Below are positions 3,462-24,342 of a stretch of DNA of 33,676 bases, in pieces. Positions within the stretch are counted from its first letter, which is position 1. Each line of letters begins with the position of its first letter. This DNA comes from a virus (taxonomy: Duplodnaviria > Heunggongvirae > Uroviricota > Caudoviricetes): the IMG/VR virus record IMGVR_UViG_2690315994_000029, positions 1-33,676 of that record; one strand, 5' to 3'. The notes beneath the pieces are model-generated. The model was not told the DNA's origin. It saw only the letters and a list, made by a program, of their open reading frames with translations, and ran no database searches. The translations under genes and the position numbers were made by a program.

Positions 3462-3571
3462 TATAATCTCGCAAATTTTTGCTAGTTAGAGGTCGCACCA
3501 GTTGGCCTGGCAATTTTTACTATTCACAGCGAAGGTAACCCACAGGGTTAAATGTAAGGATAAACAATAAA

Positions 3572-4501
3572 ATGAGTGAATTTGGTGGTCAGCAACCCGC
3601 ACCCCAACAAGTACTGGACTTAGGTGTTAGTACTGAGGGGGTTTTTAACGAAATAGAAATGGGGGTTCTTCAGAACGGGATCTCCTACCTTACGCAAAAT
3701 GGGCTGGCCAGGATTTGCGGGGTGCATCGCAGTAATATCGCGGATATTTCTCGAGAGTGGGAAGAGAGCTTCCGCCACGGAGTTTTCGCTCGAGGGCGTA
3801 TGGAGTTTATCAGCTCATATTTACAGCGTGAGCAATATAATGAGCCGACTCTTTATATCACAATCAACAAAGATGGGTCAGTCCATTATGCGTACCCAGA
3901 AGTAGTCTGTATGGCTATTCTGGAGTTCTACGCATTTGTATCTCAAAGTGCTGCAACTCCTACTGCGCTACAGTTTTTCCGCGAGCTATCCCGTGCGGGT
4001 ATGCGTGGTTACATCTATACAGCGCTTGGCTACATACCTGATGACCCTTGGCGTCATTACCACTCTCGTGTGTCAATCATGCATGGGGCAAACTCGGTTC
4101 CTGCTGGACACTTCATTGTATTCAATGAAATTGCCGGTTTAATGGTAGACCTCATCCATGCTGGATTAGCAGTAAACCAGTACACTGTACCGGATATCAG
4201 TGTGGGCCAGCACTGGGCTCGCTACTGGTCTTCTTCCAACTACGATGCGACGATTGGCCCAAGACAACGCTGCCAGCACTATTACCCTGAAGAATTCAAC
4301 CAATCCGCAAGTAATCCCCAAATGGTCTATGCATACCCTGATAATGCTTTAGCTGTATTCAGGCACTGGCTTCGTGCGGTTTATTTACCAACCAAATTCC
4401 CTAAATACCTTCTGAGTAAAGCAGGGCTATTGGCTGGCGGACAAACGGCGGCGTTGCAAATTATTGATAATTTTAATAATCGTGCATTACCTAACCCATA
4501 A
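3572..4501 (+). CDS. hypothetical protein with KilA-N/Bro-N-like N-terminal region; function unknown (candidate defence/exclusion gene)
   Basis: 309-aa ORF, ATG 3572 with TAAGGA 11 nt upstream; only plus-strand gene inside the minus-strand early operon; N-terminal segment NGISYLTQNGLARICGVHRSNIADISREW looks like a phage DNA-binding (KilA-N/Bro-N type) module; C-terminal part unrecognised. Confidence 0.7.
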   Translation: MSEFGGQQPAPQQVLDLGVSTEGVFNEIEMGVLQNGISYLTQNGLARICGVHRSNIADISREWEESFRHGVFARGRMEFISSYLQREQYNEPTLYITINKDGSVHYAYPEVVCMAILEFYAFVSQSAATPTALQFFRELSRAGMRGYIYTALGYIPDDPWRHYHSRVSIMHGANSVPAGHFIVFNEIAGLMVDLIHAGLAVNQYTVPDISVGQHWARYWSSSNYDATIGPRQRCQHYYPEEFNQSASNPQMVYAYPDNALAVFRHWLRAVYLPTKFPKYLLSKAGLLAGGQTAALQIIDNFNNRALPNP

Positions 4502-5783: not shown

Positions 5784-6072
5784 CTGAATCCCACTCTTCA
5801 AAAAGCACATTCAATTCCAGTTTCTCTGCCAATGCGTTTTCTGCACGTGCGCCGGTAGAGTACTCCCACTCTTTGAGCATATAAATCGTATCGGCACAGC
5901 GAAGCATTGCGAGGCAGATGTCCATATACTGAGCCTGTGTCAAACCATCGGGTAAAGTTGCGGGGTTAAGCACAACATATCCCTTGTCCGTTAGCCTCTT
6001 TGCTGCGGAATGAAAGGCCGGGCGGTTAAATTGTTCGTAACCGCTCATAGGCCCGGCAACGTAAACGATCAT
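5773..6072 (-). CDS. DUF4406-like (nucleoside 2-deoxyribosyltransferase-like) protein
   Basis: 99 aa beginning MIVYVAGPMSGYEQFNRPAF, typical of this phage family by recollection; ATG 6072-6070. Confidence 0.55.
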   Translation of the reverse strand: MIVYVAGPMSGYEQFNRPAFHSAAKRLTDKGYVVLNPATLPDGLTQAQYMDICLAMLRCADTIYMLKEWEYSTGARAENALAEKLELNVLFEEWDSDGL

Positions 6073-6284
6073 TCTTCGACCGCCTTACGCTTTTCACGCA
6101 TATTCTGCATCAGGCAAAAATCAGATCTGCGTTCACTCCATTCCTGATTCAGTTCGTGATGTGATTCGCGGTTGGCTTTTGCCCAGACCTTCGCTGCCCG
6201 GTCATATTCGCCGGATTGTTCAAGTCGCAAAGCCTCCCTTGCAGCCCTGTAATAAAGTGGATTGTCCCGGTATTTAAATGACAT
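6069..6284 (-). CDS. ANR-family small regulator-like protein
   Basis: 71 aa, MSFKYRDNPLYYRAAREALRLEQSGEYDRAAKVW; ATG 6284-6282 with AAGGA upstream; ATGA overlap with the downstream gene. Confidence 0.5.
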   Translation of the reverse strand: MSFKYRDNPLYYRAAREALRLEQSGEYDRAAKVWAKANRESHHELNQEWSERRSDFCLMQNMREKRKAVEE

Positions 6285-6289
6285 AGGAG

Positions 6290-8353
6290 TTAATCCTTAC
6301 GGTAGTGGTACGCCTCAAAACCGCCAGCGTTCAGTGGGATATCGGGCGCCCATTCGGGGTTAGTGGAGAGAAGCGCGGAAAGCGCTTTATCGTTGAAATC
6401 TTCTGTGTCAGGTGCTTCGGTGATCACCTCGTCGTGTACCGTCAGCACAATGCTGTAACCGGCATCTTCGATAAGCGGCATGTTTCCGGCCAGAACGTCG
6501 CGGGCGGCCGCCTGGGTGACGTTCTCTACCAGCTTTCCGCCGTAGGTTTTGAGTCGTTGCCATTTACGCGAATAAGAGTTAACACCCATATAGGTGATAT
6601 CCCCTTTTTCGATAACCGGAGACGGGTAGCATACAGCGCGTCCAGATGGCAGCTGTATGCGCAGCCACGCGCCATCACGTCGGATTTTAAGATAGCCGCA
6701 ATACAATGTTTTTTGCGGTGTGGCGATTGCTGTGCGGACGGTGCACTCCAGTTCGTACCAGAAATCACAGGTCGCGGGATGCGCCCGGCGCCAGAGACGT
6801 TTAAGTGAGTCGCAGGCGATAAATACCCGTTCAGAAAGCCCGTAGGTCGATTTACGTTTAACCGATTCGTCGTACCAGCTTTTCGCCTCGCGGATAACAT
6901 CGCGGGGAATGTTTGGCAGTGCGGCGTTCGCCAGCCCGTCGAGATCGAGACCGTAAACCAGAGCAAAAGTGATGAAAGCCGATACACCTCCTCCATAACC
7001 CAGACCGAGTTCCATGACTTTACCGATCTGACGCATGTGTTTATCAACATCATCTGGTGCAATATCGAAAGCTTTTGCATACGCCAGTTTATATAAGTCC
7101 GGACCCGTTCCGGCGTCGTACTCTCTGAATGCATTCAGTTTCCATTCTTCTCCCGCCAGCCATGCCAGCATACGGCCTTCAATGTTCGACAAGTCACTTA
7201 CCACCAGCTTTTTGCCTGTTGGCGCGATAATGCAGCCACGTAACGCTGAACTGGTTAGTTCCATGATATTGTCAAACAGCAGGTCTGCACATCCGGCTTT
7301 CAGTGCTTCGATGCCTTCGTCTATTTGTTCCTGTTTTAGTGAAGGGCGGGGAAGGTTCTGGGGCTGGAATAGCCGTCCGGCCCAACGACCGGTACGTGAC
7401 GCCCCGCAGAACTGTAGCGTACCGCGTAAGCGCCCGTCGTGGCTTACGCCTTTCATCAGTGCCTTGTATTTACTGGTGCTGGTAGTACTGGCCTGCAGGC
7501 GGATAGCCAGCAGTTCTTTCACGGCAGATGGTAAATCGGGGTCGGCAATACGACGTTCCAGAGTACTGCGTTGCATGTCTGGTAGCTCCACACCGTAGGA
7601 TTCAACAATGTGCTTAATCAACGCGTCTCGTTGTGTGGCTGCCTGCACTTCGCCATCAGTCATTTCCTGTGTACGCTTTGCCAGGCGCTTTTGTTCCTGG
7701 TCTACCGCGTCGATCGCAGCGCGTGCGAGTTCCACGTCCATGCAGACGCCCCGGTCATTGATCTGCTGATCACGATGCCAGAGCGCCAGTTCTGTCCCCT
7801 GATAATTCCACTTCGGCAGACGTTTATAGACTTCGCGCATTGCCTCGATATCCAGTCCGGCGTAAGCAACAAAGCGCCGCCATTCTTCCGGGTGGGTTTT
7901 GCTGGTGGCCCGGCGCAGTTTGCTGTTTTTCGGGCGTGGCTTACAGAACAGCTGGATCAGCGCTTTACCTTCTTTGTCCTTCGCTTTGTCTTGCGGGACG
8001 CCTAGTACTTCGCAGAGTTCCCCCAGAGCCCCCGGGAGACCGTGCGCCAGCGCCTGCACCATCGTGTCGCGCCAACGTTCGACTGGCGGTGCCAGTCGCG
8101 GCATTGCATAACGCAGGACGGTGCGGTCGAAGTGAGAGTTATGAAAATAAAGCAGGGTTTCAGGGGCTGCGATTGCTTCGTATAAGCCGTGTGGAATACC
8201 ACCACCGGCAGTGATATCCCATACGTTTACTGGCCCGTCGTTGATAGCCCATGCGAACAGCATCACTTCAACGCCTTCGGCATACGCATGGGTACCGTTC
8301 GTAATAGGGATTTCGCAATAGGTTTCCAGGTCGCCCCATAGTATATTGGACAT
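6290..8353 (-). CDS. family-A DNA polymerase (Pol I-like, phage replicative)
   Basis: 687 aa; Pol A motif A-like [14 protein letters not shown], motif B-like [16 protein letters not shown], motif C VHDE; N-terminal exonuclease-like region. Confidence 0.85.
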
Positions 8354-16660: not shown

Positions 16661-17083
16661 ATGCGTAATATTCAACAGGTTTTAGAGCGCTGGGGTGGCT
16701 GGGCAGCGAGTGAAGGTGGTAGCGTCTACTTTCCTCCTGTTGCAGCCGGGTTTAAGAATCTGCTACCCGCGACGCAGTCTGGAAGGCTGAAATGCAGTGA
16801 CAATGACGGTCTTATCATCAACTCCGCTATGAGCTGCCTGAAGAAAAAAGATCCGTATCTGTGCACGCTCCTTGAGTGGCATTACGTCCAGGCCATGCCC
16901 GTGCGGGCGATGGGTGAGAAGCTCGGCGTATCTCACACCCACGTTCTGAAGAGGCTTCAGGCGGCAGAGGGATTTATTGACGGTTGCTTAGCCATGCTGG
17001 ATGTGGTGCTCGAAATGGATCAGTCGGTTCAGTCAAAGCCTCAGGCTATCAGGACTTTGCGTAGGAGCTGCTCGGCGGCATAA
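16661..17083 (+). CDS. putative late-gene antiterminator Q
   Basis: 140 aa; sits between replication genes and the terminator-flanked lysis cassette; N-terminal VLERWGGW and C-terminal HTH-like region shared with the second Q-like ORF at 22102. Confidence 0.55.
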   Translation: MRNIQQVLERWGGWAASEGGSVYFPPVAAGFKNLLPATQSGRLKCSDNDGLIINSAMSCLKKKDPYLCTLLEWHYVQAMPVRAMGEKLGVSHTHVLKRLQAAEGFIDGCLAMLDVVLEMDQSVQSKPQAIRTLRRSCSAA

Positions 17084-17114: not shown

Positions 17115-17456
17115 ATGGCTCTGATCAGCGTTCGCAACAGATTTGAAAGCTTCATGGAACAGAGGTACCCAGACCTGTCGTTGCAGGTCAAAGGTAATAT
17201 TGGCGCATCAATGAAGGCTCAACTTGGCATCAGGATTGAACGAGAATTGTACAGTGAAGATGTTACTTACTGTGATTCAGCAGTTCAGTTGATGTGGACA
17301 CTCTTTCAGGCAGGTGTTCTGGCCGAACGAAGAGCTACCAGCGTTACGCTTCCTGCGCTGAAGGCAAAGCCGGATAGCTTCTACGATGCGGGTTATAACG
17401 AAGGTATTCAGGACTGTCGTAAACATCTGACGGCATCAGGCATCAAGGTAAGATAA
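17115..17456 (+). CDS. hypothetical protein
   Basis: 113-aa ORF with ATG 17115 directly after Q. Confidence 0.45.
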   Translation: MALISVRNRFESFMEQRYPDLSLQVKGNIGASMKAQLGIRIERELYSEDVTYCDSAVQLMWTLFQAGVLAERRATSVTLPALKAKPDSFYDAGYNEGIQDCRKHLTASGIKVR

Positions 17457-17777: not shown

Positions 17778-17800
17778 GTTCGCTATGGCGAACTTTTTTT
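17778..17800 (+). terminator. putative rho-independent terminator upstream of holin
   Basis: GTTCGC-tatg-GCGAAC followed by TTTTTTT. Confidence 0.55.
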
Positions 17801-17901
17801 GTATTCAGGGCCCACCGAAGGACGGTTCATACCCCAATCCTACGGGCGTATACGCAGGGCCCGCCTTTCAACAACACCCCGTAATGGCGGAGGTGGGAAG
17901 T

Positions 17902-18243
17902 ATGAAAATGCACAATGCTCCTCATTCCTGGCCTGACTTACTGGAACTCTTACAAAGTTGGTGGCGTGGAGATACGCCGTTGGGCGCAGTGGTTATGTCA
18001 ATTGTTATGGCTGGCTTGCGCATTGCCTATTTTGGCGGTGGTGGCGGCTGGAAACGAAAAACGCTTGAGATTTTGCTCTGTGGTGCTCTGACGCTGACCT
18101 TTGCATCCGCTCTTGAGTATGTTGGATGGCCTAAATCGCTTTCTGTTGCCATTGGTGGTGGTGTTGGGCTGATCGGTGTGGATGCTATTCGTGGGGCTGC
18201 AATGCGAGTAATCGGTAACAAGTTTGGTGGCTCTAAGGAGTAA
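17902..18243 (+). CDS. holin
   Basis: Start MKM (dual-start-like) at 17902 with GGAGGTGGGAAG RBS; hydrophobic helices; directly upstream of endolysin; track start 17785 lies in the terminator hairpin. Confidence 0.65.
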   Translation: MKMHNAPHSWPDLLELLQSWWRGDTPLGAVVMSIVMAGLRIAYFGGGGGWKRKTLEILLCGALTLTFASALEYVGWPKSLSVAIGGGVGLIGVDAIRGAAMRVIGNKFGGSKE

Positions 18244-20544: not shown

Positions 20545-20545
20545 N

Positions 20546-21724
20546 TGACTCACAATGGGCGGCAATTTGTTCCATTGCCCCAAAGATTGGCTGTACGCCA
20601 GAGACTCTGCGTGTGTGGGTTCGTCAGCATGAGCGGGATACCGGGAGTGGTGATGGTGGATTCACCACCGCTGAACGTCAGCGTCTGAAAGAGCTGGAAC
20701 GTGAAAATCGTGAACTGCGCCGCAGTAACGATATCCTTCGCCAGGCTTCCGCTTATTTTGCGAAGGCGGAGTTCGACCGCCTCTGGAAAAAATAATGCCA
20801 CTGCTGGATAAGCTGCGTGAGCAGTACGGGGTCGGACCGGTATGCAGTGAACTGCATATTGCCCCGTCAACGTATTACCACTGTCAGCAACAGCGACATC
20901 ATCCTGATAAACGCAGTGCCCGTGCGCAGCGCGATGACTGGCTGAAGAGAGAGATACAGCGCGTATACGATGAAAATCATCAGGTGTACGGTGTGCGTAA
21001 AGTCTGGCGCCAGTTGTTACGCGAAGGTATCAGGGTGGCCAGATGTACAGTGGCGCGCCTCATGGCGGTTATGGGACTTGCCGGTGTTCTCCGGGGTAAA
21101 AAGGTCCGTACTACCGTCAGCCGGAAAGCCGTTTCCGCAGGCGACCGCGTAAACCGTCAGTTCGTGGCAGAACGTCCTGACCAGCTGTGGGTGGCTGATT
21201 TTACTTACGTCAGCACATGGCAGGGCTTCGTCTATGTGGCGTTCATCATTGATGTGTTTGCCGGATGCATCGTGGGGTGGCGAGTCTCATCGTCTATGGA
21301 AACGACATTCGTGCTGGATGCACTGGAGCAGGCGTTGTGGGCCCGTCGGCCGTCCGGCACAGTCCATCACAGTGATAAAGGTTCTCAGTATGTATCACTG
21401 GCCTATACGGAGCGACTAAAAGAAGCAAAACTGCTGGCATCAACAGGGAGTACAGGTGACTCGTATGACAACGCGATGGCGGAGAGCATCAATGGTCTTT
21501 ACAAAGCGGAGGTAATACACCGTAAGAGCTGGAAAAACCGTGCAGAAGTGGAACTGGCCACACTCACGTGGGTGGACTGGTATAACAATCGACGATTGCT
21601 GGGAAGGCTGGGTCATATCCCTCCGGCAGAAGCAGAAAAAGCTTATTATGCTTCCATCAGAAACGATGATCTGGCAGCCTGAGTTCACAGATAAAACACT
21701 CTCCAGGAAAACCGGGGCGGTTCA
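20546..21724 (+). mobile_element. IS3-family insertion sequence (IS629/IS1203-like by recollection), 5'-truncated at contig join
   Basis: Partial orfA (20547-20795), TAATG overlap into orfB, right terminal repeat ending CCGGGGCGGTTCA at 21724; left end and first ~28 codons of orfA missing. Confidence 0.75.
20795..21682 (+). CDS. IS3-family transposase OrfB (DDE integrase domain)
   Basis: 295 aa with DDE-type catalytic region (WVADFTYV ... HHSDKGSQY ... DNAMAES); normally made as an OrfAB frameshift fusion. Confidence 0.8.
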   Translation: MPLLDKLREQYGVGPVCSELHIAPSTYYHCQQQRHHPDKRSARAQRDDWLKREIQRVYDENHQVYGVRKVWRQLLREGIRVARCTVARLMAVMGLAGVLRGKKVRTTVSRKAVSAGDRVNRQFVAERPDQLWVADFTYVSTWQGFVYVAFIIDVFAGCIVGWRVSSSMETTFVLDALEQALWARRPSGTVHHSDKGSQYVSLAYTERLKEAKLLASTGSTGDSYDNAMAESINGLYKAEVIHRKSWKNRAEVELATLTWVDWYNNRRLLGRLGHIPPAEAEKAYYASIRNDDLAA

Positions 21725-21815: not shown

Positions 21816-22105
21816 TGGTGGATTTACGTAAAGCGGCGCGGGGGCAGATGTGCACCGTCAGAATTCCTGGCTACTGCAATCACAATCCCGAAACTTCTGT
21901 GCTGGCGCATTACAGGCTGGCGGGGACGTGCGGAACAGCGACAAAACCACACGATATGCAGGCAGCGATTGCCTGTAGCTCATGCCACGATTTAATCGAC
22001 GGGCGGGTAAAAAACAGCGATTACACCAAAGAAGAATTACGCCTGATGCATGCAGAAGGTGTTTTTCGCACACAAGAAATCTGGAGAAAGGAAGGTTATT
22101 TATGA
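21815..22105 (+). CDS. YbcO-like (DUF1364) nin-region protein
   Basis: 96 aa; DLRKAARGQMCTVRIPGYCNHNPETSVLAHYRLAG ... IACSSCHDLID resembles E. coli DLP12 YbcO as I recall it. Confidence 0.65.
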   Translation: MVDLRKAARGQMCTVRIPGYCNHNPETSVLAHYRLAGTCGTATKPHDMQAAIACSSCHDLIDGRVKNSDYTKEELRLMHAEGVFRTQEIWRKEGYL

Positions 22106-22656
22106 TTTACCCAACAAATACAGGCAAAAGCGGGGAACACCTTCGTCTCTCCACGCTGGAAAGTGTCTGGATTCAGGGAAAACTGCGCATGTGGGGGCGC
22201 TGGTCGTATATTGGCGGCGGTAAGACGGGAAATATGTTCAACCAGTTGCTGACCTCTAAAAAGCTGACAAAAACGGCAATTAACGAGGCGCTCCGGAGGA
22301 TGAAAAAAGCAGGTCTGGACAAACCTGAACTTGAGGCTTTTTTGCGGGATATGATCAACGGCAAGCAAAAAAGCTGGCTGGTGCATTGTACTGATGCAGA
22401 GGCGTTATGCATTGATCGGGTGATTAGTGAAGTGCTGGCAGAACACCCAGGATTGATTTGTATCCTCCGGCAAAGATATGAAGGGCGGGGGATGAGTAAG
22501 CGCAAAATGGCTGAATTGCTAAATGATGCACACCCTGAGTGGTGTTTTCGGACGTGCTGCAGTCGGGTAGATGTATGGCTAAATCTTGCTGAATATATGC
22601 TCTATCTGCCGATGCGTGATGCATTCTCTTCCGGGTATTTAAAAACTGTCTGTTGA
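22102..22656 (+). CDS. putative Q-like late antiterminator (second, divergent allele)
   Basis: 184 aa from ATG 22102 (AAAGGAAGG RBS, ATGA overlap with previous gene); shares the W-G-x-W N-terminal motif and C-terminal HTH-like region with the 16661 Q-like protein; followed by a terminator. Confidence 0.5.
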   Translation: MIYPTNTGKSGEHLRLSTLESVWIQGKLRMWGRWSYIGGGKTGNMFNQLLTSKKLTKTAINEALRRMKKAGLDKPELEAFLRDMINGKQKSWLVHCTDAEALCIDRVISEVLAEHPGLICILRQRYEGRGMSKRKMAELLNDAHPEWCFRTCCSRVDVWLNLAEYMLYLPMRDAFSSGYLKTVC

Positions 22657-22744
22657 CTCAATCTGTTATCCGGGGCTATATTCCTCACGCGCCAGCAAAA
22701 TCTGGCGTCGGGATTAGGAACCCCGGATAGAGACCGCGACAGAC

Positions 22745-22766
22745 ACACGCCGCGAGCGTGTTTTTT
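22745..22766 (+). terminator. putative rho-independent terminator (tR'-like) after the Q-like gene
   Basis: ACACGC-cgcga-GCGTGT followed by TTTTTTATT; preceded by hairpin CGCCAG-caaaat-CTGGCG at 22690-22707. Confidence 0.55.
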
Positions 22767-22929
22767 ATTGTCGTATGCACGCGCACATCTGAATTATGGT
22801 GGGGCGTATGGGGGAGCTGAAAAGCTCGCCGGTTGGTTTCCCGGTAGTTCCTAACCCTGTACGTCTCACCACCCGATGATTAGGAACCTGACGGTGGTGA
22901 TGGTTTAGAAACCACCAGAGGGCGTCATT

Positions 22930-23511
22930 ATGACAACTCAAATTTCTGTTGAAACTCTCTCCCCGATCACCCATAACCAGATTCCTGTTATTACCACCGA
23001 ACTTTTGGCGCAGTTGTACGGTGCTGAAGTTAAGAACATTCAAAATAACTACGCCAGAAATGCTGAGCGCTTTATTGAAGGAAAGCATTTTTTCAAAGTG
23101 GCTGGCGATGCCCTGAAAAATTTGCGGGTAGCTTTAAACTACTCACAAAATTTGCAACCATCTTTAAGAGGGTTACAAATTTCCCCGAAAGCCCGCTCCC
23201 TCATCCTCTGGACAGAACGCGGAGCAGCCCGTCATGCCAAAATGCTCGAAACCGATCAGGCGTGGGATGTGTTCGAAAAGCTGGAAGACTGCTATTTCAG
23301 ACAAAAGGATCCGTCAGCGCCAGTTTCATGCCAGAAAAGTTACGACACGCGAGTTCTCTGTTATCAGCGAGGCGGTGTCACTGTTTCCACAATTCAGTTA
23401 CGGGATGATGATATTGTTATTTCCCTTGAGTCATGGCTGGAACTGGCGAGAGCCAATGGTTGGTTTGTTGTTCGCAGAGATAAACTGGTGGAAAGGTTGA
23501 TGCAGCTTTAA
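22930..23511 (+). CDS. ORF6N-domain protein (antirepressor-like DNA-binding cargo gene)
   Basis: 193 aa; N-terminal ITTELLAQLYGAEVKNIQNNYARNAERFIEGKHFFKV matches the ORF6N domain pattern as I know it; sits in the Q-to-holin slot. Confidence 0.65.
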   Translation: MTTQISVETLSPITHNQIPVITTELLAQLYGAEVKNIQNNYARNAERFIEGKHFFKVAGDALKNLRVALNYSQNLQPSLRGLQISPKARSLILWTERGAARHAKMLETDQAWDVFEKLEDCYFRQKDPSAPVSCQKSYDTRVLCYQRGGVTVSTIQLRDDDIVISLESWLELARANGWFVVRRDKLVERLMQL

Positions 23512-23606
23512 AAAAGTTCTTGCATTTTTGCACATAAACTGCTTCAATTCCGGTACGCTTCGCAAAGCTGTATCGCGAGGCGAATCAAGCGCATGAACTT
23601 TACCAG

Positions 23607-23635
23607 AACCCGCCATTGAGCGGGTTTTGTTGTTT
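23607..23635 (+). terminator. putative rho-independent terminator
   Basis: AACCCGC-cattga-GCGGGTT followed by TTGTTGTTTC. Confidence 0.5.
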
Positions 23636-23858
23636 CTGACGGATAGAAAAATGAAATAGCTAAATAAAAAGAATGCATTGGATGCCATATATTGGCAACG
23701 TGACGACAGCGTTAATCTGGTCGGGCTCCCATGGCGACGTAGTGAGGGAGAGGAAGCGTAAAGCATCACTGAGTTACGGTTGGCACCCGGTTTAACGCGT
23801 AAGTGGCCTGATAAAGAGATAGTGCGCCGCGGCACTCACAGCGGCAACGATTAACTGA

Positions 23859-23885
23859 CCTCGGCATTTGCCGAGGTTTTTTATT
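23859..23885 (+). terminator. putative rho-independent terminator
   Basis: CCTCGGC-attt-GCCGAGG followed by TTTTTTATTT. Confidence 0.6.
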
Positions 23886-24006
23886 TAAGGCCGCAGACAG
23901 GCCCATTTAGTGCAACGCCTTTCCCCGTTTCCGCTCCTGGAATATTCGGGGATTTTTTATTCCCTCAATTTGCACCCGCGATATGTGCGAGGTGAGAGAT
24001 GATGAA

Positions 24007-24342
24007 ATGCCTCATAACCCAAATACCTGGCCGGACTGGCTGGAGTTGTTTCAGAGCTGGTGGCGTGGAGACACACCGCTGGGTGCAGTGATTATGTCGA
24101 TCGTTATGGCTGGTTTGCGCATCGCCTATTTTGGCGGTGGTGGGGGCTGGAAACGAAAAACGCTTGAGATTTTGCTCTGTGGTGCCCTGACGCTGACCTT
24201 TGCATCCGCGCTTGAGTATGTCGGATGGCCTAAATCACTTTCTGTTGCCATTGGTGGTGGGGTGGGGCTGATTGGTGTTGATGCTATTCGTGGTGCGGCA
24301 ATGAGGGTCATCGGTAACAAGTTCGGTGCCCATAAGGAGTAA
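24007..24342 (+). CDS. holin (second copy, divergent N-terminus)
   Basis: Identical to the 17902 holin from WWRGDTPLGAV onward except for the last residues; different N-terminus; start ATG 24007. Confidence 0.65.
   Translation: MPHNPNTWPDWLELFQSWWRGDTPLGAVIMSIVMAGLRIAYFGGGGGWKRKTLEILLCGALTLTFASALEYVGWPKSLSVAIGGGVGLIGVDAIRGAAMRVIGNKFGAHKE

Follow-up and report, generated by a model that had tools for sequence, protein, structure and literature searches.

The DNA analysed here, referred to as the window, comprises positions 1-33,676 of the IMG/VR virus record IMGVR_UViG_2690315994_000029 (Caudoviricetes), and the element in question occupies positions 22653-23511 of its plus strand, between the Q-like antiterminator gene and the holin gene of prophage B. 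With considerable confidence this segment can be regarded as an antirepressor cassette under the control of an RNA switch of the c4/IsrK type, inserted between Q and the leader that natively follows Q. From 5' to 3' the cassette consists of a promoter, an IsrK/c4-a1b1 leader, a terminator, a C4 RNA and the gene ant, which encodes an ORF6N-domain antirepressor. The type of system is already known, from phage P1 and from the Salmonella prophage Gifsy-1 among others, and the locus is an additional Escherichia coli member with its own alleles of the two sets of pairing sites, a and b. The preliminary description of the window had viewed three copies of a motif, TTAGGAAC, as the binding site of a dedicated regulator. 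These copies are instead the RNA-RNA recognition sites of a c4/IsrK-type antisense switch (a1, a' and a2), and not protein-binding sites, as seen from the Rfam matches and from covariation that includes a G-U wobble.

The evidence gathered in this analysis comprises RNA family matches, folds, three-way complementarity with covariation, insertion boundaries and the protein family. The individual features that had been recorded earlier (the ORF6N gene, the hairpin CGCCAG-N6-CTGGCG at 22690-22707, the terminator at 22745-22766 and the three motif copies) are all present at those positions, as is their setting in the slot between a Q-like gene and a holin gene.

RNA elements and their pairing sites

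A scan of the plus strand against Rfam returned isrK, c4-a1b1 and C4, all above their gathering scores and in the canonical order. The isrK match (RF01394) covers the full model at 22689-22766 with 69.4 bits (gathering score 50), c4-a1b1 (RF03163) extends over 22676-22729 with 47.8 bits (gathering score 46.7), and C4 (RF01695) spans 22792-22876 with 67 bits (gathering score 45). For comparison, IMG/VR was searched with the ant protein, which yielded 80 loci, nearly all of which share an upstream module of about 280 nt. In all, 32 distinct cassette versions, including those of VT2-Sakai and Gifsy-1, were aligned with MAFFT. The alignment omits L051, which has an insertion between leader and C4, L057, L062 and L064, which have other downstream DNA, and L056-58 (the version as in L058_2427), so that the pairing figures refer to intact cassettes; the related L065 was retained. 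In L065 an IS1 transposase (3491-3994) is inserted in the 5' end of ant.

The promoter of the cassette is a sigma-70-type site, TTGACT-18-TATATT (22653-22682, plus strand), with 10 of 12 consensus matches, and in a consensus scan it is the sole promoter-like site between 22000 and 24400. The TTGAC and the -10 positions are invariant in the 32 cassettes, and the spacer varies by genomic context. The leader downstream (22689-22766) folds into three hairpins. The first (22689-22708), which is the CGCCAG-N6-CTGGCG hairpin recorded earlier, has seven base pairs, which are 100% paired in the 32 sequences, three of them with compensatory changes. The second, with a stem formed by 22709-12 and 22722-25, holds a1 in its loop, and the third is the intrinsic terminator (stem 22745-22761, followed by a T run to 22766) found by a terminator scan within the isrK match. 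The end of IsrK in Gifsy-1 is the homologous terminator (PMC4825925). As a separate observation, the loop of hairpin 1, GCAAAAUC (22695-22702), takes no part in the a or b pairings and is invariant in 32/32 cassettes, the P1 equivalent being GCAAAUUC; in the window, CAAAAT at about +8 to +13 resembles a -10 element.

The C4 RNA (22792-22876) has a minimum free energy of -42.9 kcal/mol (z = -4.5) and takes the form typical of Rfam clan CL00128, in which a long outer stem surrounds an internal loop and two hairpins. In the 32 sequences all three helices are 100% paired, 10 of the pairs having changed on both sides, and the segments a' and b' are unpaired in the fold. It is within this framework that the repeated motif finds its place. 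In the window TTAGGAAC occurs exactly three times, within 175 nt: as a1 at 22714-22721 (plus) in the loop of leader hairpin 2, as the inverted copy at 22847-22854 (minus), which on the plus strand reads GUUCCUAA and forms a' in the C4 internal loop, directly 5' of CCC in the 3' strand, and as a2 at 22880-22887 (plus), 4 nt past the 3' end of C4. The two direct copies share 11 nt, GATTAGGAACC. Shuffled versions of the window contain the motif 0.64 times on average, and only 1 of 100 shuffles attains three copies. The motif is thus far above chance, and it co-varies three ways in relatives.

A second triple, unrelated in sequence, has the same geometry of one antisense and two sense segments. 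Its members are b1 (GAGACCG, 22730-22736), single-stranded in the leader and complementary to the loop of C4 hairpin 2, b' (UGGUUUC, 22834-22840) in that loop, unpaired and complementary to both b1 and b2, and b2 (GAAACCA, 22908-22914), which can form 7 bp with b' and ends 3 nt 5' of the Shine-Dalgarno sequence GAGGG (22918-22). An overlap of b2 with the Shine-Dalgarno sequence is seen in P1 and in other alleles. The window therefore has on one strand what is found in c4 systems, namely a1 and b1 upstream of C4 and complementary to a' and b' (with a narrow margin for the c4-a1b1 match), and a2 directly after C4 with b2 at the ribosome-binding site. For the isolated segments the calculated duplex energies are -16.4 kcal/mol for a':a1, -10.1 kcal/mol for a':a2 and -12.1 kcal/mol for b':b2.

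Both a pairings, a1:a' and a':a2, of 8 pairs each, are fully paired (100% of cells) in 32/32 cassettes, with changes on both sides in 5/8 pairs; none of 500 shuffles reaches the observed covariation score, and sliding the partners against each other lowers pairing to 32-46%. Five a alleles are represented (TTAGGAAC, TTGGAAC, TTGGCGT, TTAGCAC and TTGAGAC), and an a1 variant in L074 maintains its pairing via a G-U wobble. Because the b register shifts between alleles in the MAFFT alignment, the b sites were tested per sequence: in 32/32 cassettes the hairpin 2 loop of C4 can pair over 6-10 nt both with the leader and with the stretch at the ant Shine-Dalgarno sequence (6-8 nt in the case of b1), again with five alleles. 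Cognate partners share longer complementary runs than non-cognate ones (7.2 vs 3.95 nt for a; 7.3-7.8 vs 5.2 nt for b, the cognate mean for b1 being 7.25 nt), and of the 5 x 5 possible a/b allele combinations, 13 occur among these E. coli and Salmonella cassettes. Two cassettes can also be found on one contig: those of L049 (463-760 and 3725-4010) have the same a allele and different b alleles, and the two in L267, a metagenome-assembled genome (MAG) of the Pseudomonadota, at 3533 and 7458, differ in their a alleles.

An independent set was obtained by searching one genome per species for the invariant leader pattern, for which about 17 chance matches are expected. The pattern was found at 120 or more loci, at least, mainly in Enterobacterales, with some in Cellvibrionaceae and other MAGs. 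Of these leaders, 122 had sufficient DNA downstream to be examined, and 83 of the 122 have an exact a triple; the triples represent 16 different 7-nt alleles, and a non-cognate control gave 4/1220. Experimental support comes from Gifsy-1, in which the mutations G28A and G31A are compensated by C162U and C159U (PMC4825925). Since these positions align on TTGGCGT (a1) and ACGCCAA (a'), the pairing has been shown experimentally in a homologue.

One further complementarity was noted next to a2. The sequence GGTGGTGA (22893-22900, plus strand) is complementary to the 3' strand of C4, TCACCACC (22866-73), in 32/32 cassettes, with one co-varying position (A:T in 22, G:C in 9 and G:T in 1), and P1 has a similar pair. 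It is possible that this alternative helix would display a2 in a loop.

The gene under this control, ant (22930-23511, plus strand), encodes a 193-residue protein with a Pfam ORF6N domain (E 3.5e-20) that matches PHROG 2379, 'anti-repressor', over its full length (1.6e-91). It is 54% identical to AnrP of Gifsy-1 (STM2616; E 1e-67), ORF6N being found in both, with the first 27 residues identical and the C-terminal third diverged. The identical ant protein is present on 284 contigs. The N-terminal 125 residues, with ORF6N, are 98-99% identical in proteins with different C-termini, and the VT2-Sakai version has the P22 antirepressor C-terminal domain. Judged by its protein families, ant is thus a phage regulatory gene, a conserved antirepressor, and not cargo that benefits the host. 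The earlier designation 'cargo gene' holds in so far as the cassette is an insert in its own right, complete with promoter and terminator, but not in the sense of Stx-like cargo (Stx, Shiga toxin). The preliminary description had named two outcomes that would speak against it, a motif at chance frequency and a protein that close relatives possess as a conserved antirepressor of known function; the protein is such an antirepressor, but the motif is not at chance frequency.

Insertion between Q and its native leader

The gene upstream of the cassette, at 22102-22656 on the plus strand, encodes a Q-like antiterminator (Pfam DUF1133 2e-106, Phage_antitermQ 3.3e-06; PHROG 753, 'anti-termination protein Q-like', 5.9e-80), and its stop codon, TGA at 22654-56, sits within the -35 hexamer of the cassette promoter. 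In phages with a DUF1133-type Q that lack the cassette, the Q stop codon is followed immediately by the sequence that is found here 3' of ant, at 23512-23640, and the similarity of Q to these relatives stops at residue 176-177. From the comparison of the end of Q and of the leader with those of the cassette-less phages, the cassette is therefore an insertion of about 880 bp that separates Q from the short leader native to it. The conserved stretch 23512-23640 (plus strand), which forms the right boundary of the insertion and has a strong terminator at 23604-23629 by scan, is probably that native Q-proximal leader; no consensus promoter was found in this unit by scanning, either here or in the cassette-less loci. 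A similar stretch (TTTAAAAA...TTG) is found at both ends of the cassette, at 22638-22658 and 23506-23526, and resembles the one copy (CAAAAAATAGCTTGAT) that cassette-less phages have at the Q stop codon, which suggests a target site duplication on insertion.

The cassette is not confined to one position. It is found directly 3' of Q genes from three unrelated families (DUF1133, PF06530 and Q82-type), after ninE in VT2-Sakai and L076, and beside an integrase gene in L074. In L078 a gene resembling pertussis toxin S1 (5995-6732; Pfam 1.8e-17) lies 3' of a cassette that follows a PF06530 Q. Among loci with a Q82-type Q, the isrJ region lies right after Q in 45 without the cassette and after anrP in 32 with it. 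That region (L163-L242; Gifsy-1, L083 33380-33512) consists of TTGCAA-17-TATATT followed by an RNA of about 75 nt and then a terminator. Given its place right after Q in the 45 C4-less loci, IsrJ, and not IsrK, looks like the native short late-leader RNA of the Q82-type family.

The surroundings of the cassette can be described briefly. The holin gene (23983-24342, downstream of ant) belongs to the lambda holin family by protein family match. The roughly 340 nt that precede it (23640-23983) contain no convincing open reading frame (ORF) and end in a strong terminator at 23857-23878, over which lies the sole RNA-family match of this interval, a sub-threshold OmrA-B (25.3 bits, E 0.038). In prophage A the counterpart slot has a PF06530 Q gene (16661-17083), a 113-aa ORF (17115-17456) and a holin gene (17785-18243); the ORF is unrelated to ant, as had been noted before, and a Pfam search with its product found no match. 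An IS3-family element (20545-21690) separates the truncated terminase gene of prophage A from the YbcO and Q genes of prophage B, and within it lies an ALIL frameshift pseudoknot (20750-20866, 120.9 bits). The window contains a single N at 20545 and runs of N at 30410-20 and 31889-99.

Proposed mechanism and competing views

Taken together, these elements suggest the following course of events. Transcription would start at about 22689 from the sigma-70 promoter, which is presumed to be constitutive, and most transcripts would end at 22745-66, giving a leader of about 78 nt in which a1 is displayed by a hairpin loop and is closely followed by b1. Transcripts that read through would include C4 (22792-22876), a2, b2, the Shine-Dalgarno sequence and ant. 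C4, with a' in its internal loop and b' in a hairpin loop, would pair with a2 and b2 by the ribosome-binding site, leaving ant untranslated, an effect that is adopted here by analogy with P1. The short leader, which mimics both sites, would compete for C4, thus setting a threshold, and may de-repress ant; Ant may in turn inactivate a prophage repressor and so reinforce induction. The last steps are modelled on Gifsy-1, where transcripts from the isrK promoter mostly stop at the terminator, read-through mRNA is translationally silent, and translation of anrP rises 139-fold when the short IsrK is supplied in trans (Hershko-Shalev et al. 2016, PMC4825925).

The conserved 3' CCACC of C4 in the cassettes is consistent with processing. 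In P1, RNase P cuts C4 from the primary transcript and C4 acts in trans, and by analogy C4 would presumably be excised from the primary transcript here as well. The stable STnc1160 species in Salmonella is consistent with such processing of C4 (PMC4825925, PMC7067206).

Several points weigh against this scheme and should be considered together. The c4-a1b1 match exceeds its gathering score by just 1.1 bits. When C4 was cofolded with the leader or the 5' untranslated region of ant, no a or b pairings appeared, loop-loop contacts being beyond what the method can represent. Because b2 stops 3 nt upstream of the Shine-Dalgarno sequence, the case for direct occlusion is less clear for this cassette than it is for P1 or other alleles. 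In Gifsy-1, activation was ascribed to translation of orf45 coupled to anrP and not to relief from C4, and constitutive STnc1160/orf45 strengthened IsrK toxicity, which is a misfit with simple titration (PMC4825925). As for the protein, the C-terminal half of ant has no Pfam or PDB sequence match, its PHROG matches are solely to families of unknown function, and an AlphaFold2 model built with 18 close homologues has a mean predicted local distance difference test score (pLDDT) of 41 and is unusable.

An alternative view of the transcriptional input, which is compatible with the scheme outlined above and bears on that input solely, is that the cassette promoter is a Q-dependent late promoter and the leader a counterpart of 6S/StxS, with Q-modified polymerase reading into C4, ant and the lysis genes. 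The promoter, which begins at the Q stop codon, has no consensus-like rival in the interval from Q to the holin gene, and the repeated occurrence of the cassette directly after Q genes of three unrelated families fits the same view. IsrK has moreover been described as arising from an antitermination-regulated promoter (Sy et al., PMC7547250), and expression of a transcriptional fusion to anrP rose 8-fold with IsrK in trans (PMC4825925). Against this, the native Q-proximal leader and its terminator are retained 3' of ant, isrJ lies directly after Q in the cassette-less Q82-type loci, and in Stx phages the same cassette operates in the nin region, a long way upstream of Q and pR'. The retained leader and the isrJ loci make the cassette look inserted upstream of the native late leader, and this weakens the late-promoter view, which is less likely than not.

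A second alternative concerns the route by which ant is activated. In the published model for Gifsy-1, the leader opens the start of orf45 and translation runs into the antirepressor gene by coupling, with C4 repression being secondary. The window has a counterpart of orf45, at 22796-22879 on the plus strand inside C4, in which both AUGs (22796 and 22808, 12 nt apart) are conserved, and in Gifsy-1 mutation of the first AUG or an inserted stop codon lowers activation, and 30S binding has been shown (PMC4825925). However, the counterpart here has 27 codons, its frame being shifted by an extra A:U pair in the window's a site, and it stops 50 nt before the ant ATG. Among the 32 cassettes the ORF ranges from 14 to 49 codons with variable C-termini; only in Gifsy-1 does it end at the ant ATG, and in L065, L049 and L036 it reads in frame into ant. 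The RNA explains why the N-terminus of the ORF is conserved, since this part of the ORF also forms the 5' strand of the C4 stem, and AUG mutations would accordingly change C4 too. Since the peptide is not conserved and the RNA is, occlusion of the ribosome-binding site by C4, as in P1, with relief through the leader mimic would appear to be the general mechanism and the main route here, and ORF coupling would be a peculiarity of Gifsy-1. Coupling is thus an improbable main route for ant.

It could also be argued that the ORF6N protein has some other target, as a growth inhibitor or as a DNA-binding regulator of the KilA-N type, since ORF6N is a KilA-N-related putative DNA-binding domain and the last 70 residues have no known family and differ from those of AnrP; the PDB search and the model described above gave no structural evidence. 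This seems quite unlikely in view of the full-length match to the PHROG anti-repressor family and the RNA module, which is the same as that controlling ant in P1. Moreover, AnrP raises antQ expression and induces the Gifsy-1 prophage when expressed (PMC4825925), and a Stx-phage homologue aids derepression: deletion of ant in phi24B leads to lower late-gene expression after induction (PMC3064807). The view that the three TTAGGAAC copies are DNA operators of a dedicated protein regulator deserves hardly any credence. In its favour, the copies, two direct and one inverted, cluster within 175 bp near a promoter and a gene start, as operators often do. Against it stand the facts that the inverted copy is found unpaired in a loop of an Rfam-matched RNA with compensatory helix changes, that the b triple repeats the arrangement, that one variant matches solely via a G-U pair, which has meaning in RNA and not in DNA, that no copy overlaps the promoter hexamers, and that the compensatory mutagenesis in Gifsy-1 showed RNA pairing at these positions (PMC4825925).

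One tentative suggestion, for which the odds are less than even, is that the alleles of the a and b sites combine into an RNA 'address' that decides which co-resident prophages share one antirepressor switch, and that in most members the leader acts by titration of C4 and not by orf45 coupling. Under this scenario the C4 of one prophage would silence ant in any other prophage whose alleles match, every matching cassette would be de-repressed once one prophage released a burst of leader RNA, and polylysogens would be wired into RNA-defined induction groups. Antirepressors set the timing of prophage induction, and this includes that of Shiga-toxin phages with close copies of the cassette. The variation in the alleles and in the upstream ORF suggests that there are specificity classes and that the mechanism is more general than the published one. 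At a 99.4% identical E. coli locus (L001; CS6L, NZ_CP158447, 9051-9336), RefSeq annotates an 'ORF6N domain-containing protein' alone, with no RNA gene over the leader or C4, so that E. coli annotation shows nothing of a complete RNA switch despite the presence of the identical protein on hundreds of contigs.

Relation to known phage RNA switches

The closest known relative is the antQ-isrK-orf45(STnc1160)-anrP region of Gifsy-1, which likewise has the three Rfam elements in identical order, 5' of STM2616; there the isrK match overlaps c4-a1b1 and the C4 match coincides with orf45/STnc1160. Its promoter hexamers, leader hairpins and terminator match those of the window cassette, and it too is positioned directly after Q. 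As at the isrK locus, the window has an IsrK RNA with two 5' hairpins, a terminator and its own promoter, and an AnrP-type antirepressor downstream. The two differ in their alleles, TTAGGAAC vs TTGGCGT(C) for a and GGTTTC vs CGGTGAT for b, and cross-reaction is therefore not expected. They also differ in the upstream Q, which is of the DUF1133 type here and of the Q82 type in Gifsy-1, with no sequence similarity between the two, and window scans found neither isrJ downstream of ant (at E up to 1) nor a downstream tRNA. The Q82-type antQ and isrJ are features of context that lie outside the cassette proper. A further difference is in orf45, which has 45 codons and reaches anrP in Gifsy-1, in contrast to the 27 codons of its counterpart here, which falls short of ant and does not end at its start as coupling would require. 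IsrK and STnc1160 are strongly transcribed in lysogens under all tested conditions (PMC7067206). Lambda 6S RNA and StxS, the short terminated transcripts of the late promoter pR', are a further parallel to the leader, being abundant short RNAs that lysogens make from a constitutive promoter beside Q, with an intrinsic terminator at the end (Sy et al. 2020, PMC7547250; PMC7067206); the leader of the window differs from these in that it belongs to a mobile cassette found also away from Q, with the native Q-proximal leader still downstream.

Other systems offer looser parallels. The CI RNA of P4, with seqA, seqB and seqC, is a processed small RNA whose antisense segment is flanked by upstream and downstream targets on one transcript, and the authors of the Gifsy-1 study likened their locus to P4 seqA/CI/seqC (PMC4825925). 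The outcome in P4 is premature transcription termination of the replication genes, as opposed to the control of an antirepressor in the window. In immI of P22 the ant gene of a lambdoid phage is likewise restrained by a small antisense RNA, sar. The P22 sar RNA is an opposite-strand transcript across the start of ant, whereas in the window the antisense segments are on the same strand as their target and would act via loop contacts.

The immI region of P1 and P7, with the c4 antisense RNA, icd and ant1/ant2, was reportedly the subject of Citron and Schuster in 1990, and the P1 region was compared with the window by means of the GenBank annotation of NC_005856. In P1 the leader has a1 (TTGACAG) in a hairpin loop, with b1 (GTTAGTGC) after it and a terminator-like hairpin, and c4 comprises 77 nt in which a' (CTGTCAA, then CCC) and b' (in a hairpin loop) are placed as they are in the window; a2 lies 3 nt past c4, and b2 is at the Shine-Dalgarno sequence of icd. 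In both cases an antirepressor is under the control of an antisense RNA. Allelic specificity of the a and b sites has a precedent in the heteroimmunity of P1 and P7. The genes that are regulated are not the same: between C4 and ant P1 has icd, a leader ORF that must be translated for ant to be expressed, and there is none of this kind here, and the P1 Ant protein contains KilAC (PF03374) in place of ORF6N, a BLASTP comparison of ant with P1 Ant1 (E 8.5) indicating that they are unrelated. The host elements also differ, a plasmid prophage in the case of P1 and a lambdoid prophage here, and no C1 operator is known at the window promoter. The RNA module of the window is thus a member of the c4 systems, whereas the genes it governs are not those of P1, and the recognition of the repeated motif as a1, a' and a2 sites connects the literature on P1 c4 with that on Salmonella IsrK.

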